IMG/VR virus record: IMGVR_UViG_2925877141_000002 | DNA from: a virus | Taxonomy: Duplodnaviria > Heunggongvirae > Uroviricota > Caudoviricetes | Direction: 5' to 3' (one strand) | Length of the DNA: 33,848 nt | Shown: positions 3,920 through 10,171 of the stretch, one piece after another | How the letters are laid out: each line of letters opens with the position of its first letter | Position numbering within the stretch: the first letter of the stretch is position 1 | Notes under the pieces: model-generated | What the model saw: only the letters and a program-made list of their open reading frames with translations | Told to the model about the DNA's origin: nothing | Database searches by the model: none | Translations under genes and position numbers: made by a program

Positions 3920-4010
3920 TAGACTGGCCCCCTGAATCTCCAGACAACCAATATCACTTAAATAAGTGATAGTCTTAATACTAGTTTTTAGACTAGTCAT
4001 TGGAGAACAG

Positions 4011-4442
4011 ATGATTGATGTCTTAGGGCCGGAGAAACGCAGACGGCGTACCACACAGGAAAAGATCGCAATTGTTCAGCAGAGCTTTGAACCGGGGATG
4101 ACGGTCTCCCTCGTTGCCCGGCAACATGGTGTAGCAGCCAGCCAGTTATTTCTCTGGCGTAAGCAATACCAGGAAGGAAGTCTTACTGCTGTCGCCGCCG
4201 GAGAACAGGTTGTTCCTGCCTCTGAACTTGCTGCCGCCATGAAGCAGATTAAAGAACTCCAGCGCCTGCTCGGCAAGAAAACGATGGAAAATGAACTCCT
4301 CAAAGAAGCCGTTGAATATGGACGGGCAAAAAAGTGGATAGCGCACGCGCCCTTATTGCCCGGGATGGGGAGTAAGCTTAGTCAGCCGTTGTCTCCGGGT
4401 GTCGCGTGCGCAGTTGCACGTCATTCTCAGACGAACCGATGA
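4011..4442 (+). CDS. insC: IS2 OrfA (InsC) variant with altered, extended C-terminus
   Basis: Starts [14 protein letters not shown] with GGAGAACAG RBS; ends ...PGMGSKLSQ... instead of canonical ...PGDGE because of the 1-bp deletion. Confidence 0.8.
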
Positions 4443-5238
4443 CTGGATGGATGGCCGCCGCAGTCGTCACACTGATGATACGGATGTGCTTCTCCGTATA
4501 CACCATGTTATCGGAGAGCTGCCCACGTATGGTTATCGTCGGGTATGGGCGCTGCTTCGCAGACAGGCAGAACTTGATGGTATGCCTGCGATCAATGCCA
4601 AACGTGTTTACCGGATCATGCGCCAGAATGCGCTGTTGCTTGAGCGAAAACCTGCTGTACCGCCATCGAAACGGGCACATACAGGCAGAGTGGCCGTGAA
4701 AGAAAGCAATCAGCGATGGTGCTCTGACGGGTTCGAGTTCTGCTGTGATAACGGAGAGAGACTGCGTGTCACGTTCGCGCTGGACTGCTGTGATCGTGAG
4801 GCACTGCACTGGGCGGTCACTACCGGCGGCTTCAACAGTGAAACAGTACAGGACGTCATGCTGGGAGCGGTGGAACGCCGCTTCGGCAACGATCTTCCGT
4901 CGTCTCCAGTGGAGTGGCTGACGGATAATGGTTCATGCTACCGGGCTAATGAAACACGCCAGTTCGCCCGGATGTTGGGACTTGAACCGAAGAACACGGC
5001 GGTGCGGAGTCCGGAGAGTAACGGAATAGCAGAGAGCTTCGTGAAAACGATAAAGCGTGACTACATCAGTATCATGCCCAAACCAGACGGGTTAACGGCA
5101 GCAAAGAACCTTGCAGAGGCGTTCGAGCATTATAACGAATGGCATCCGCATAGTGCGCTGGGTTATCGCTCGCCACGGGAATATCTGCGGCAGCGGGCTT
5201 GTAATGGGTTAAGTGATAACAGATGTCTGGAAATATAG
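4399..5238 (+). CDS. insD: IS2 OrfB (InsD) transposase body, DDE domain; no longer reachable by -1 frameshift from OrfA
   Basis: 279-aa ORF identical to the distal InsD of copy B; the frame entered by -1 slippage at the A6G site (4328-4334) hits TAA at about 4371. Confidence 0.75.
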
Positions 5239-5249
5239 GGGCAAATCCA

Positions 5250-5447
5250 GCCAGGTTTATCCTCGCAGACAATAAATTTATAAGCGCAGTCCTGAGCAGC
5301 CGGATAATGTTCCAGGAATTGCCAGTGAAATTTTGCTCGAGCACGGCGTTCGTCGCCAGCTTCAATGGCTGTGGCTACAGCCACAGCGCCTTCTTCCCTT
5401 GTTGCCAGTTCGTCAGGAATAGCGACGCAAATAAAGACTTTACTCAT
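5250..5447 (-). pseudogene. Prophage exonuclease, N-terminal 66 codons separated from the rest of the gene by IS2
   Basis: ORF starting at 5447 (MSKVFICVAIPDE...) reads in frame through 5250; removing IS2 and one TSD copy joins it in frame to 3914..1641, restoring an 823-aa protein. Confidence 0.7.
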
Positions 5448-5540
5448 TTTGTTTTAACCTCATGACAGATTTAAGGATGAACAAATCCCTGCCATTGCTG
5501 GCATATAAGAATGAAACCGGATATTTATTACGGAACTGTT

Positions 5541-5732
5541 TTAAAGACCTGCCGGGATTTCGATATTATTCTGGTGAATAACTTTATCGACCGGGTAACA
5601 GTTACCGGGAATTTTCTGTTCGGTTGCTGCAGTCATACACTCCTGCATTGTCCTGTGAACACTGACTGCAATATCAACTGGCACTCCGGAAACAAGAAAA
5701 ACTGTCAGAACAAGCGCAAATGCTGAATTCAT
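5541..5732 (-). CDS. ydfD: YdfD-like small protein with N-terminal hydrophobic segment (reported prophage lysis protein)
   Basis: 63 aa from ATG at 5732 (MNSAFALVLTVFLVSG...), AAGGA RBS; ATGA overlap with dicB stop. Match to Qin YdfD is from recall. Confidence 0.7.
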   Translation of the reverse strand: MNSAFALVLTVFLVSGVPVDIAVSVHRTMQECMTAATEQKIPGNCYPVDKVIHQNNIEIPAGL

Positions 5733-5917
5733 TGTGCACATCCTTTTGGCATCAGACGTAAACGAGCCAGCATTGAAACAATGCATATTTTATTTAATAG
5801 CTCCCGTTCTTGTTTTCTCTTGTTAATGGCATCTTCAGTAAATACAGGGTTACTGATAGTGACACCAATTTCAAAACAACCTTCAGACGTATTAACGTTT
5901 GGTAATAACGTTTTCAT
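5729..5917 (-). CDS. dicB: Cell division inhibitor DicB
   Basis: 62 aa MKTLLPNVNTSEGCFEIGV...MLARLRLMPKGCAQ; GAGGA RBS 7 nt upstream; downstream of the DicF sequence as in the Qin dicB operon. Confidence 0.8.
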   Translation of the reverse strand: MKTLLPNVNTSEGCFEIGVTISNPVFTEDAINKRKQERELLNKICIVSMLARLRLMPKGCAQ

Positions 5918-6086
5918 TATCGCGTCCTCAACAATGAATTTTGTGATGCAGTGCCTGGTGCCTCCAAGTGACGTTAACCAGTTAACAATTAACGTCGGAT
6001 ACAGAGAATCCACCCATAACACTGTTTTTGGTTTTAACTGTTCCGCGTGCGCTTAGCCGCATTCACCGCATCACAAAATTCACTTT

Positions 6087-6144
6087 AAAAACGGCGGCAG
6101 AGCAGTCACGGAGTAAAACTGATACCGCCAAACGTCACCAGAAA
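6087..6144 (-). ncRNA. dicF: DicF small RNA with 3' stem-loop and U tract
   Basis: Reverse complement of 6092..6144 reads UUUCUGGUGACGUUUGGCGGUAUCAGUUUUACUCCGUGACUGCUCUGCCGCCG followed by UUUUU; matches DicF as recalled; sits between ydfC-like and dicB. Confidence 0.8.
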
Positions 6145-6213
6145 ATTGATAACAGAGGGCGTTGCAGCGGGGTTGTCACTTAAGCGTATGGTCAACCTGA
6201 CAACTCGGTGTCC

Positions 6214-6399
6214 TCAACGGGGAAGGAATAACCCCGCCATACTTACCGCCGCGCCATTTTGCGGGTTGCCACAACCGGAAGCGCACGGTCGAATTAAATT
6301 TAACGACACCGTACAGTGAGACGAACTTCGCCGTGCGCTTTCGTGTTGTGTGCCTGCTTTTAACCACGTCAGGCGAGGTGGTATCCTTAAAATCACCAC
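6214..6399 (-). CDS. Hypothetical small protein in the ydfC position
   Basis: 61-aa ORF with GTG start and no clear RBS; position only. Confidence 0.3.
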   Translation of the reverse strand: MVILRIPPRLTWLKAGTQHESARRSSSHCTVSLNLIRPCASGCGNPQNGAAVSMAGLFLPR

Positions 6400-6403
6400 A
6401 GTT

Positions 6404-6979
6404 TTAAGGATTCATTAAGCAATGTCGCAACCACCAATAAATCCGCTTAAGAACATGAAAATTGATTACTGGTATAAAGCGCTTACAGTTGTTGGCGCTG
6501 CGTTGTTTGTCTTTAATGGAACGTCTTTTTTTGACAGATATCCCGTTGTTCCATTGGGTTTTTTGTCCTCCGGCATCTTTTTTATTGGTTTGGGGGAGTG
6601 GATTAATCACCCTCTCAAAGTGAGATTTATTGGCCCTGGAGTTTGGACTCGTGGATATAATCGTTCTTCGTGCGCACTCGGTATCATCTTCGACATACTT
6701 GGTTGTTTCCTGATTGTTACAGGAGTCGTCAAGTTCTTCTGATGTAAAACCGCAAATGGGGCACGTAACGGGAATTTTGAAAAGCGTTTCTCCGGGTTCC
6801 AGAACAAAATTTTCTGCGGTCTGATTTTGCTTCTCATATTTGTGCTCCGCGTCATTGTGAGAGCACATTCTTATTCTGAGTGCCTGTTTAAACTCACTGA
6901 AGCTGAGAGCTTCTTCGCCTTCGGCAAGGCCTTCGAAGTATTCTTCGTAAGCCTTTTCCATGATTGTGTCGAAATCCAT
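6404..6979 (-). CDS. YdfB-like protein, extended (191 codons), with CPICGF zinc-ribbon-like motif; distal two thirds may be a shadow ORF
   Basis: Begins MDFDTIMEKAYEEYFEGLAEGEEAL... coupled to the ydfA stop; distal part is K/N/R-rich and exactly antisense to the plus-strand membrane ORF. Confidence 0.4.
   Translation of the reverse strand: MDFDTIMEKAYEEYFEGLAEGEEALSFSEFKQALRIRMCSHNDAEHKYEKQNQTAENFVLEPGETLFKIPVTCPICGFTSEELDDSCNNQETTKYVEDDTECARRTIISTSPNSRANKSHFERVINPLPQTNKKDAGGQKTQWNNGISVKKRRSIKDKQRSANNCKRFIPVINFHVLKRIYWWLRHCLMNP
6422..6742 (+). CDS. Hypothetical small membrane protein (three predicted TM segments), antisense to the dicB operon
   Basis: 106 aa with hydrophobic stretches ALTVVGAALFVF, GFLSSGIFFIGLG, ALGIIFDILGCFLIVTGVV; AAGGA RBS 11 nt upstream of ATG, lying in the 3' arm of a perfect 10-bp hairpin (6383-6392 / 6402-6411). 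Confidence 0.45.
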   Translation: MSQPPINPLKNMKIDYWYKALTVVGAALFVFNGTSFFDRYPVVPLGFLSSGIFFIGLGEWINHPLKVRFIGPGVWTRGYNRSSCALGIIFDILGCFLIVTGVVKFF

Positions 6980-6980
6980 A

Positions 6981-7136
6981 TCACTCACCTGAGTTTCTTT
7001 CCAGCCAGCGACGGGCACCATTTTCGGTTTTAAACGTTTTGCTTTTGGTATACGTCATCGCGGTGAACGTGCCGTCCTGGTTGGGGAACACGCCACATAC
7101 CAGAGATTCGCTGTTGCCAAGATCGATAGTATCCAT
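6981..7136 (-). CDS. ydfA: YdfA-like small protein
   Basis: 51 aa MDTIDLGNSESLVCGVFPNQDGTFTAMTYTKSKTFKTENGARRWLERNSGE; first gene downstream of the dicA-proximal operator. Confidence 0.7.
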   Translation of the reverse strand: MDTIDLGNSESLVCGVFPNQDGTFTAMTYTKSKTFKTENGARRWLERNSGE

Positions 7137-7250
7137 GCTGACCTCATTTCCCCTTAACGCCGGGGTAGCGGAACTGTTTGCTGAGAACACCGTGCGGTGT
7201 CTTGATGGAAAGTAATTTAGAATAACCTAACATTAGAGGCAAGTGTTTTT

Positions 7251-7268
7251 TGTTAGATTAGTCTAACA
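7251..7268. promoter_or_regulatory. Palindromic operator TGTTAGA-N4-TCTAACA upstream of ydfA (candidate DicA site controlling the dicB operon)
   Basis: Perfect 7-bp inverted repeat; the same half-sites recur in the dicA-dicC intergenic region. Confidence 0.5.
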
Positions 7269-7304
7269 AAAAGAGTGGGCGCAACTAATCACTTGAAAAG
7301 AATG

Positions 7305-7712
7305 TTATTTTATTGATTTATTTTTACGCGCTTTAAGCATTTCTTCGAAGAGTTTGTTGAAGTTTTCTACTCTTGCGCGCATTTCAGACAGCAAGGCTTC
7401 CTGCTCGGAAGATGGAAGAGCATCGAATAATTCGATCAATTCTTTGTGGTTGGGAGTTAGCTCTGTTTCCACATGAAGTTCTTGTGCAGGCACTGGTGCC
7501 TTGTCTTCGTCACCAAACATTAGCCATGTAGGTGAGCACTTCAGAGCATCCGCTAAAGCAAACAATCGTTTTCCGACTGGCTGGGTTTCGTCTCTTTCCC
7601 ATTGTGAAATTGTGACGTGAGCAACTCCAGCGAGGCGCGCAGCTTCTCGTTGTGTTAAGCGTAATTCTTTTCGTCGCGCCAGAACTCGCTGGCCTAGGGT
7701 TCTTGTATCCAT
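7305..7712 (-). CDS. dicA: XRE-family HTH repressor DicA (CI-like)
   Basis: 135 aa MDTRTLGQRVLARRKELRLTQREAARLAGVAHVTISQWERDETQP...; divergent from dicC. Confidence 0.9.
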   Translation of the reverse strand: MDTRTLGQRVLARRKELRLTQREAARLAGVAHVTISQWERDETQPVGKRLFALADALKCSPTWLMFGDEDKAPVPAQELHVETELTPNHKELIELFDALPSSEQEALLSEMRARVENFNKLFEEMLKARKNKSIK

Positions 7713-7761
7713 AGTTAGGTAATTCTAATTTTTCTTGACTTAGATATCCCGCGCACAATAA

Positions 7762-7779
7762 TGTTAGAAAAGTCTAACA
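7762..7779. promoter_or_regulatory. Palindromic operator TGTTAGA-N4-TCTAACA in the dicA/dicC divergent promoter region
   Basis: Perfect inverted repeat between the divergent starts of dicA (7712) and dicC (7793). Confidence 0.5.
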
Positions 7780-7792
7780 AGAGGGGGCTTTG

Positions 7793-8020
7793 ATGCTTAA
7801 AGTTGACGCAATTACTTTTTTTGGCAGCAAAACAAAGCTTGCCAATGCCGCAGGAGTGAGACTGGCAAGTGTTGCTGCTTGGGGGATACTGGTTCCTGAA
7901 GGTCGCGCGATGCGTCTACAGGAGGCATCTGGCGGGGAGCTTCTGTATGATCCCAAGGTTTATGACGAATATCGTAAGACGAAGCGGGCGGGGCGGTTGA
8001 ACAATGAAAATCACTCCTGA
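7793..8020 (+). CDS. dicC: Cro-like regulator DicC
   Basis: MLKVDAITFFGSKTKLANAAGVRLASVAAWG...RKTKRAGRLNNENHS; GAGGGGG RBS 5 nt upstream. Confidence 0.8.
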   Translation: MLKVDAITFFGSKTKLANAAGVRLASVAAWGILVPEGRAMRLQEASGGELLYDPKVYDEYRKTKRAGRLNNENHS

Positions 8021-9934: not shown

Positions 9935-10171
9935 GTGAAATTAGCTATCAGGCTTCAATTACCGCTGGCATTCGCATCAAAGGAGAGGAGCATGGAAATA
10001 AAACCAGAGGATTAGTTAAGCAATATCGTTTTATTTCCGATAAAAGAGGATGACCCTCGTAATCAGGTTAATTTTCTTTATGAGCCATCGGAAAGACCAT
10101 ATTGCCATCACGCTTCTGTCCGGGTTGACGAAAAAGAGCGTCAGGTCCGCTGTAAAATCTGAGGTGCAGTT

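Follow-up and report, generated by a model that had tools for sequence, protein, structure and literature searches.

A sas-like element precedes an unnamed, widespread membrane-protein gene in the sieB slot of a Qin/DicB-type lambdoid prophage

INTRODUCTION

The sieB/esc/sas system of phage P22 was reportedly described by Ranade and Poteete in 1993. Its inhibitor, Esc, is produced from an in-frame internal start of sieB, escapes sas control, and counteracts SieB. In the IS10 RNA-IN/RNA-OUT pair, a stable antisense hairpin can pair through its loop and upper stem with the 5′ end of an mRNA, including the Shine-Dalgarno (SD) sequence and the start codon. The toxins of type I toxin-antitoxin systems are small, hydrophobic proteins, usually of fewer than 60 amino acids (aa) and with one transmembrane (TM) helix; they are toxic when overexpressed, and their mRNAs fold in such a way that the SD is hidden. 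Here, we analyzed a 33,848-nucleotide (nt) stretch of viral DNA (IMG/VR record IMGVR_UViG_2925877141_000002; the whole stretch is referred to as the window), in which a membrane-protein gene on the (+) strand is preceded by a conserved block and a hairpin that are homologous to the sas antisense RNA of P22. According to reviews, sas switches the translation of sieB (PMC7067206; PMC12197685), and a 2026 small-RNA study reported the sequenced P22 sas RNA, which is 127 nt long (PMC13397905). The three parts of the locus, in window coordinates, are as follows:

6343–6382, both strands: conserved block GTGTTGTGTGCCTGCTTTTAACCACGTCAGGCGAGGTGGT, homologous to the 3′ domain of P22 sas RNA
6383–6411, both strands: hairpin HP2, a perfect 10-bp stem with arms ATCCTTAAAA (6383–6392) and TTTTAAGGAT (6402–6411) and loop TCACCACAG
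6422–6742, (+) strand: membrane-protein gene with an ATG start, encoding 106 aa with three helices and belonging to an unnamed family

The locus resembles the P22 sieB/sas system and the sieB genes of Rac and lambda in its slot, its orientation, its membrane-protein cargo, and its possession of a block and hairpin homologous to sas. However, the cargo is different: the window protein has 106 aa rather than ~190 aa and no match to PF14163, while a P22-type cargo scores 89 bits. Compared with the P22 leader, the window leader is short, its hairpin overlaps both the SD and the predicted promoter, and there is no second copy of the loop motif. In addition, the window prophage is of the DicA/DicB type, with no N homologue seen between the repressor and the cargo, and its candidate for an Esc-like internal start, Met12, is conserved only in the sas-linked clade and lacks an SD.

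The predicted pairing geometry is like that of IS10 RNA-IN/RNA-OUT, a similarity that involves no homology and depends on the predicted mRNA start at ~6395. With hok/sok, ldr/rdl, and tisB/istR, the locus shares a gene for a hydrophobic protein, a (predicted) antisense RNA over the translation start, and a structured leader; in contrast to type I systems, the window protein is twice the usual size and has three helices, which places it outside the size range of that class, and it is encoded by a broadly distributed solo gene whose antisense RNA would be part of, or derived from, an operon transcript. A further parallel is provided by the hotspots of accessory and defense genes in P2 and P4 prophages (Rousset et al. 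2022, PMC9122126), which likewise combine a fixed position and a conserved flank with many unrelated small cargos, whereas here the position is in the lambdoid immunity region, the flank is an antisense-RNA element, and only SieB has a known role, with no notable PADLOC matches. Overall, the locus looks like a known regulatory design of the sieB/sas type with a new, widespread, and mis-annotated membrane-protein cargo.

RESULTS

The upstream element is homologous to P22 sas

The block at 6343–6382 contains two interleaved complementary pairs, GCCTG (6352–6356) with CAGGC (6370–6374) and CCAC (6364–6367) with GTGG (6378–6381), and conforms to the pattern GTTGTGTGCCTG(n)CTTTTA(A/T)CCAC(n)TCAGGC...GTGGTATCC (window 6343–6388). 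Alignment of the 200 nt upstream of the gene (alignment A2) revealed that the block is invariant across orthologues, including that of Yersinia, even at 51% protein identity. The same block precedes a different gene in strain G12, matches 94 phage records, and occurs in 2081 E. coli genomes (795 with the gene cassette and ~1290 with the block alone).

In P22, a block with 91% identity is located just upstream of sieB; in the curated P22 record, the promoter and RNA start of sieB are annotated downstream of this block, and sieB opposes the PL operon. The published sas sequence maps exactly to the (−) strand of the comparison locus L047 (positions 1987–2113; comparison loci carry L numbers), where it covers the block, the hairpin, and the sieB start codon; the block and hairpin constitute the 3′ two-thirds of P22 sas. 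By this sequence comparison, the element upstream of the membrane-protein gene is homologous to the P22 sas antisense RNA, which is stable and has been sequenced, and this homology strongly suggests that the window gene is under antisense regulation as well. A first-pass annotation of this DNA, made from the sequence, had proposed a silenced gene under antisense control with its ribosome-binding site (RBS) locked in cis; the antisense part of that proposal gained support from the homology, whereas the cis lock became doubtful, as described below. The block of Rac has diverged, with the compensatory pair CCCGG/CCGGG replacing GCCTG/CAGGC. As a separate observation, three prophage contigs (L036–L038, ~2810–2890) carry a sequence immediately upstream of the block (..GCTCTACCAACTGAGCTACACCA..) that is tRNA-like in reverse complement.

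A conserved hairpin covers the Shine-Dalgarno sequence

The perfect inverted repeat seen in the first pass, with AAGGA in its 3′ arm, was recovered with a stem of 10 bp; its arms are separated by 9 nt, and the SD (AAGGA, 6406–6410) lies in the 3′ arm, 11 nt before the ATG. Folding of the 5′ region, which had been proposed as a check, gave −13.9 kcal/mol for the 56-nt segment as RNA (z = −3.0 versus dinucleotide shuffles). A perfect 10-bp repeat alone is not rare in 34 kb: the window contains three (five overlapping 10-mers), compared with 1.4 ± 1.5 in 200 dinucleotide shuffles, so the case for the hairpin rests on its relatives.

Among the orthologues, the inner stem shows compensatory changes (AAAA/TTTT to AAAGC/GCTTT to AAAGG/CCTTT), and the stems in front of other cargos are unrelated in sequence (TCCTTCTT/AAGAAGGA, TACTGG/CCAGTA, and TGCTGG/CCAGCA). 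Since MAFFT cannot register non-homologous hairpin stems, we folded each sequence individually, which revealed the hairpin in 27 out of 27 distinct short (class-I) leaders (mean z = −2.9); when RNAalifold was applied to 19 minus-strand leaders aligned with MAFFT, the invariant 5-bp stem was all that emerged. In 22 of the 27 leaders, the hairpin folded more stably as (−) strand RNA than as (+) strand RNA, and the SD was paired in most predicted plus-strand folds. By position, the (−) strand of HP2 corresponds to the P22 sas stem-loop UUCUCG..CGAGAA. An intrinsic terminator formed by the hairpin or the block was rejected because no U-run follows on either strand, and an Rfam scan of 5500–7800 (E ≤ 1) returned only DicF and a weak match to STnc100, with none over the block or hairpin.

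The plus-strand gene belongs to a widespread family of membrane proteins

The coordinates given in the first-pass annotation for a (+) strand open reading frame (ORF) with three hydrophobic segments proved exact, and the AlphaFold model of the 106-aa protein (predicted local distance difference test score, 84.9) agrees with these segments, with helices at residues 17–32, 42–62, and 85–105 and a beta hairpin. We found 60 homologues of this protein (34–100% identity), nearly all of 100–110 aa, with sources including Yersinia, Herminiimonas, Reinekea, and metagenomes. A tblastn search also matched phage mEp390 and Burkholderia phage Bcep176, and a profile search extended the family to 450 representative clusters across bacteria. 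The family motifs DYWYKA and GLGEWINHPL are invariant or nearly so (alignment A1), and the start and stop positions are kept across 20 DNA homologues from very different bacteria. Among complete E. coli genomes, the cassette is present in 795 out of 5426 (~15%). The protein had no match in Pfam, PHROGs, NCBIfam, PADLOC, or a PDB sequence search, its 30 aligned relatives likewise had none in Pfam, and a Foldseek search of the model against BFVD and PDB yielded no solved or viral fold match.

Orthologues with 88, 84, 58, and 51% identity are all located in lambdoid prophages, in the order early-left genes (−), membrane-protein gene (+), CI/DicA-type repressor gene (−), cro (+). The mEp390 copy is positioned antisense between cro and cII and has a TTG start and a good SD. 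Residue 12 of the window protein (codon 6455–6457) is Met in the five enteric orthologues that are linked to sas, whereas the remaining 26 homologues of the alignment have Leu; Met12 could be an Esc-like internal start, with no SD upstream of its codon. An all-against-all BLAST of the neighbors at 19 distant loci uncovered no recurring partner; the repressors of L004 and L009 formed the sole cluster, with two members, and on this basis we rejected a two-gene system or a protein antitoxin. The membrane-protein gene is a solo, mobile accessory gene. Two isolated observations concern family members elsewhere. In Reinekea (L210 106–3120), the homologue stands within a run of seven small co-oriented orphan genes with spacers of ~60–185 nt, an arrangement that resembles an integron cassette array, and one Arcobacter genome (metagenome-assembled; L017–L019) contains three copies.

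The operon-sense frame opposite the gene is a shadow at the protein level

A long ORF on the operon-sense strand runs antisense to the gene, codon for codon in register:

7021–6404, (−) strand: composite 205-aa operon-sense ORF, matching phrog_35040

This ORF has three parts, namely, the YdfB N-terminus (6979–6878; the first 34 residues from Met15 on), a small conserved peptide ..EPGETLFKIPVTCPICGFT (6799–6743), and a 113-codon tail, rich in K, N, and R, that is exactly antisense to the membrane-protein gene. Across the 20 DNA homologues, pairwise differences at codon positions 1, 2, and 3 of the plus frame amounted to 0.49, 0.32, and 0.68, respectively, and the registered antisense frame contained 1 to 17 stops in 14 of them. 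Among the enteric orthologues, the ratio of nonsynonymous to synonymous substitution rates (dN/dS) was 0.12–0.20 in the plus frame and 1.3–1.7 in the minus frame (close pairs). Because the homologues, the codon-position variability, and dN/dS all favor the plus frame, the plus-strand ORF is, on these sequence criteria, the real gene and the distal minus frame its shadow at the protein level. The first-pass annotation had suspected as much of the K/N/R-rich tail, for which we found no protein-level constraint, and it had named selection confined to the minus frame as the outcome that would speak against its plus-strand gene; selection was found on the plus frame.

The small peptide EPGETLFKIPVTCPICGFT (IPxxCPxCGF) is kept in orthologous loci, where variation falls at third codon positions of the minus frame, and the segment 6743–6799 (−) is, by that pattern, probably a real small early-left gene. 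In the orthologue L042, a nonsense codon occurs right after this peptide, just upstream of the tail, and the N-terminal part of the minus ORF differs among lineages. The minus ORF is nonetheless the one usually annotated (phrog_35040; HannyBb CDS0038, L003 3483–4100; mEp390 gp39, L004 3456–3911), with 1798 members in public protein clusters versus 141 for the plus ORF, and the published annotations of mEp390 and HannyBb miss the membrane-protein gene. In an identical RefSeq genome, the PGAP annotation lists a 'ydfB pseudogene' at 6878–6979 and nothing between it and dicB.

Unrelated cargos share the slot behind the block

The membrane-protein gene is flanked by the early-left genes and the repressor gene and reads against the early-left operon, just as sieB does in K-12 Rac and in P22. 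A pattern scan of viral contigs for the block returned at least 120 matches in 86 distinct versions, and the loci with a block were surveyed for cargos (window 6343–6388, L002, L044–L050, and L052–L171). The 69 cargos found after the block formed 24 clusters, representing at least 24 unrelated families, among them SieB, zinc-ribbon proteins of 66–81 aa, a family with the motif 'RVELR..DY..LHEKM', and a 144-aa family beginning MSGNIYTLYK... Among these cargos, only SieB had a Pfam or PADLOC identity.

Two leader layouts were evident. In short leaders, to which the window belongs, GTGG is followed by TAT..T; together with a preceding TG, this sequence makes up an extended −10-like motif that shares bases with the 5′ arm of the hairpin, the 3′ arm ends in or beside the SD, and the ATG follows 41–49 nt after the block. 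In long leaders (P22, Rac, and O157 types), the hairpin is followed by a TATAAT-like −10 and then by a repeat of the loop motif, beyond which lie the SD and the ATG; this repeat starts at the P22 sieB RNA start site annotated in the record.

Predicted transcripts suggest silencing by the early-left operon

The transcription signals and the antisense RNA proposed for the window are the following:

6360–6387, (+) strand: predicted cargo promoter, with a −35-like TTAACC (6360–6365), a 16-nt spacer, and an extended −10 TGgTATCCT (6379–6387)
6335–6426, (−) strand: predicted sas-like antisense RNA, with both ends placed purely from positional homology to P22 sas (127 nt)
7214–7272, (−) strand: probable early-left (dicB operon) promoter/operator, with −35 TTGCCT (7242–7237), a 17-nt spacer, and −10 TAAATT (7219–7214), read by eye

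Variants of the −10 comprised TATCCT, TATACT, TATGCT, TATTCT, and TATCTT, with TAT..T kept only in leaders whose ATG lies 41–49 nt after the block. A scan with consensus promoters and terminators found nothing relevant, the proposed promoters scoring 8/12, under the threshold. A sigma-54 reading of TGGTAT-N8-GC was rejected because the window and L002 lack the GC. From the homology with P22 sieB, whose RNA start is annotated at the start of the repeated loop motif, we infer an mRNA start near A6395, in the hairpin loop. With such a start, the 5′ arm would be outside the mRNA, and the hairpin would belong to the minus-strand RNA. The first-pass claim that the RBS is locked in a hairpin of its own mRNA is therefore doubtful, given that the 5′ arm coincides with the −10-like motif and that the predicted mRNA start falls in the loop. 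The predicted sas-like RNA would have its 5′ end a few nt inside the cargo coding sequence and its 3′ end 17 nt beyond the block. Farther upstream on the (−) strand, an 11-bp perfect palindrome, TTTTTGTTAGA/TCTAACAAAAA (7247–7272), contains TGTTAGA..TCTAACA (inverted repeat I4), and the segment 7214–7272, between the repressor gene and ydfA, is, from its sequence features, likely to be a DicA-type operator together with the dicB-operon promoter and hence the source of the antisense transcript.

In the mechanism that we propose, the repressor would keep the dicB operon off in the lysogen, where the cargo would be transcribed from the promoter in the block and 5′ arm, starting at ~6395, and translated. 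Once the early-left operon is switched on, either by induction or by an incoming related phage, its minus-strand RNA would yield the sas-like RNA, which through its loop and 5′ stem is complementary to the cargo mRNA at the 5′ end, SD, and start codon (the predicted pairing partners being the loop CUGUGGUGA and the mRNA 5′ end ACCACAG), and pairing of the two RNAs would block translation. By analogy with SieB, the protein most likely serves in exclusion or abortive infection, being made in the lysogen, and would have to be silenced for the phage itself to grow. That window 6335–6742 is a sieB/sas-type module of a Qin/DicB-type lambdoid prophage with a different cargo, including this silencing and exclusion, is in our judgment probable.

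Enteric copies of the gene lack codons that read as antisense stops

The seven enteric gene sequences (the window, L004, L009, L036, L039, L041, and L042) represent ~5 lineages among which synonymous divergence is saturated. None of them has a TTA, CTA, or TCA codon, although ~3.2–3.9 would be expected per gene (P(0) = 0.012–0.027 each). The TTA:TTG ratio was 0:22, and A-ending codons accounted for 22% in the other four-codon boxes versus 0 out of 83 in the CTN and TCN boxes, a deficit with a Fisher p of 2e-8 when these related sequences are pooled. Consistent with this, the operon-sense frame is open across the whole gene in every enteric orthologue, including those of mEp390 and Pantoea, where the gene occupies another place within the immunity region. 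In the other cargos of this slot, TTA, CTA, and TCA codons are as numerous as expected, which validates the expectation and makes the effect specific to the membrane-protein family; anti-polarity as a slot-wide property, considered as a reason for the open antisense frame, was weakened by the same result. The codon pattern suggests that the early-left transcript may be translated straight through the antisense gene or that a mirror-image polypeptide may neutralize the membrane protein.

The surroundings are those of a Qin/DicB-type prophage

The gene is embedded in the immunity and early-left region of a lambdoid prophage of the Qin/DicB type. Its main annotated neighbors are as follows:

6092–6143, (−) strand: DicF small RNA gene (Rfam RF00039, 72.5 bits, E = 1.7e-15), downstream on the same operon transcript
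6981–7136, (−) strand: ydfA (DUF1391), between the predicted dicB-operon promoter and ydfB
7305–7712, (−) strand: DicA-like helix-turn-helix repressor gene, adjoining the predicted operator

The (−) strand also carries ydfD and dicB (PF05358), and cro, ydaT, and O-like genes follow the repressor on the (+) strand. Relative to the Qin dicB operon of K-12 (ydfA-ydfB-ydfC-dicF-dicB-ydfD), the genes ydfA, dicF, dicB, and ydfD and the ydfB N-terminus are collinear, with homology covering 5500–6361 and 6879–7385. The intervening 517-bp segment (6362–6878) stands in place of K-12 ydfC and the 3′ end of ydfB, and K-12 Qin has neither the block nor the plus-strand gene at this place. The first-pass annotation was thus right to place the gene outside the dicB operon as it is known from K-12. 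Mosaic breakpoints fall at the element itself, at 6361 in comparison with K-12 and at 6388 in comparison with strain G12.

Three further observations concern other parts of the window. Between dicF and dicB, Rfam gave a weak match to STnc100 (5885–6094, (−) strand; 28 bits against a gathering score of 47, E = 0.0011); an IS2 element with an insD-like ORF at 4399–5238 on the (+) strand interrupts the ydfE-type exonuclease gene beside ydfD (~4010–5240 and 5163–5447); and a perfect 11-bp inverted repeat, GGAAATAAAAC/GTTTTATTTCC, occupies 9994–10038 with a 23-nt spacer.

DISCUSSION

Several points weigh against the interpretation of the locus as a sieB/sas-type module. The family gene occurs without the upstream block in mEp390 and Pantoea, its gene context outside enterics is not fixed, and the cargo resembles neither SieB nor any known defense protein in sequence or fold. 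The production of sas in P22 is documented by reviews and one RNA-seq table. We infer, rather than observe, the mRNA start, the ends of the sas-like RNA, the direction of control, and the function of the protein. Finally, a relaxed pattern search for variants of the first stem, which returned mostly unrelated DNA, contained two true variants (L179 and L199) in which the pair is U.G on the (+) strand but C.A on the (−) strand and which favor plus-strand pairing. These variants point to the opposite strand from the hairpin energies, so that the wobble evidence does not settle which strand folds.

The two block variants fit a different arrangement, in which the mRNA starts upstream of 6383, the hairpin hides the SD, and the product is a type I-like toxin that stays silent until the hairpin is opened. 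The hairpin is stable and conserved and, provided that its 5′ arm is transcribed, pairs the SD, as it does in most of the plus-strand folds predicted. A structured 5′ leader could form from the block, and plus-strand read-through transcripts, if any, would carry the hairpin. We nevertheless consider this arrangement unlikely, since the 5′ arm coincides with a conserved −10-like motif, the annotated P22 RNA start is downstream of the homologous hairpin (which is hence absent from the sieB mRNA), type I toxins have fewer than ~60 aa as opposed to 106 aa with three TM helices, and the gene is found solo across phyla with no conserved partner. It is far less probable still that the block and hairpin are a mere recombination linker at a lambdoid module boundary with no RNA function; such a linker would account for the breakpoints right at the element and for the many different cargos that follow, but it fails to explain why stems change in sequence yet stay complementary, or why the element is found inside a stable, sequenced P22 RNA.

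Coding on the (−) strand bears on two further explanations. If the 106-aa protein and the minus tail were both functional, with the minus product of the early-left transcript, for example, counteracting the membrane protein as Esc does SieB, the absence of TTA, CTA, and TCA from the seven enteric sequences, against expected numbers in the other cargos of the slot, would be understandable, as would the start of the minus ORF in the independently conserved peptide IPxxCPxCGF. This dual coding is, however, a rather improbable explanation, considering the minus-frame dN/dS of close pairs, the nonsense codon of L042 just upstream of the tail together with the lineage-variable N-terminal part, and a tail that has no homologue-independent support. 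The view implicit in most gene calls and phage annotations, namely, that the 205-aa minus ORF is the only real gene and the plus ORF its shadow, draws on the larger protein cluster and on co-orientation with the operon, but it is contradicted by the codon-position variability and dN/dS, by the extension of the plus-frame family to genomes in which the minus frame has 3–17 stops, and by the treatment of the minus ORF as a ydfB pseudogene in PGAP, and we give it almost no credence.

Returning to the sieB/sas-type interpretation, we tentatively raise a broader possibility, one that may well not hold in full: the block and hairpin could be a portable self-silencing cassette across lambdoid phages, a single antisense-RNA scaffold joined to at least 24 unrelated cargos expressed in the lysogen, with the stem re-tuned to the RBS of each cargo, the sieB slot could be an unrecognized hotspot for exclusion or defense genes, and the antisense-stop codons of this particular cargo could have been selectively removed. 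Two leads follow for further work, namely, a cargo hotspot on a shared antisense scaffold and selection against antisense stops, the latter offering a clean natural case of selection on overlapping antisense frames.

For annotation, the finding matters because RefSeq usually omits the gene and calls a ydfB pseudogene or the 205-aa shadow ORF, and phage databases have built a family on that shadow ORF. In many strains, the transcript of the dicB operon would also include an antisense regulator, a point of relevance to studies of how DicF and DicB are expressed. More broadly, the sas-like element links a mechanism described for a single phage in 1993 to thousands of prophages, and small orphan genes gain a testable role as lysogen-only exclusion factors that would be silenced by the phage's own early transcript.

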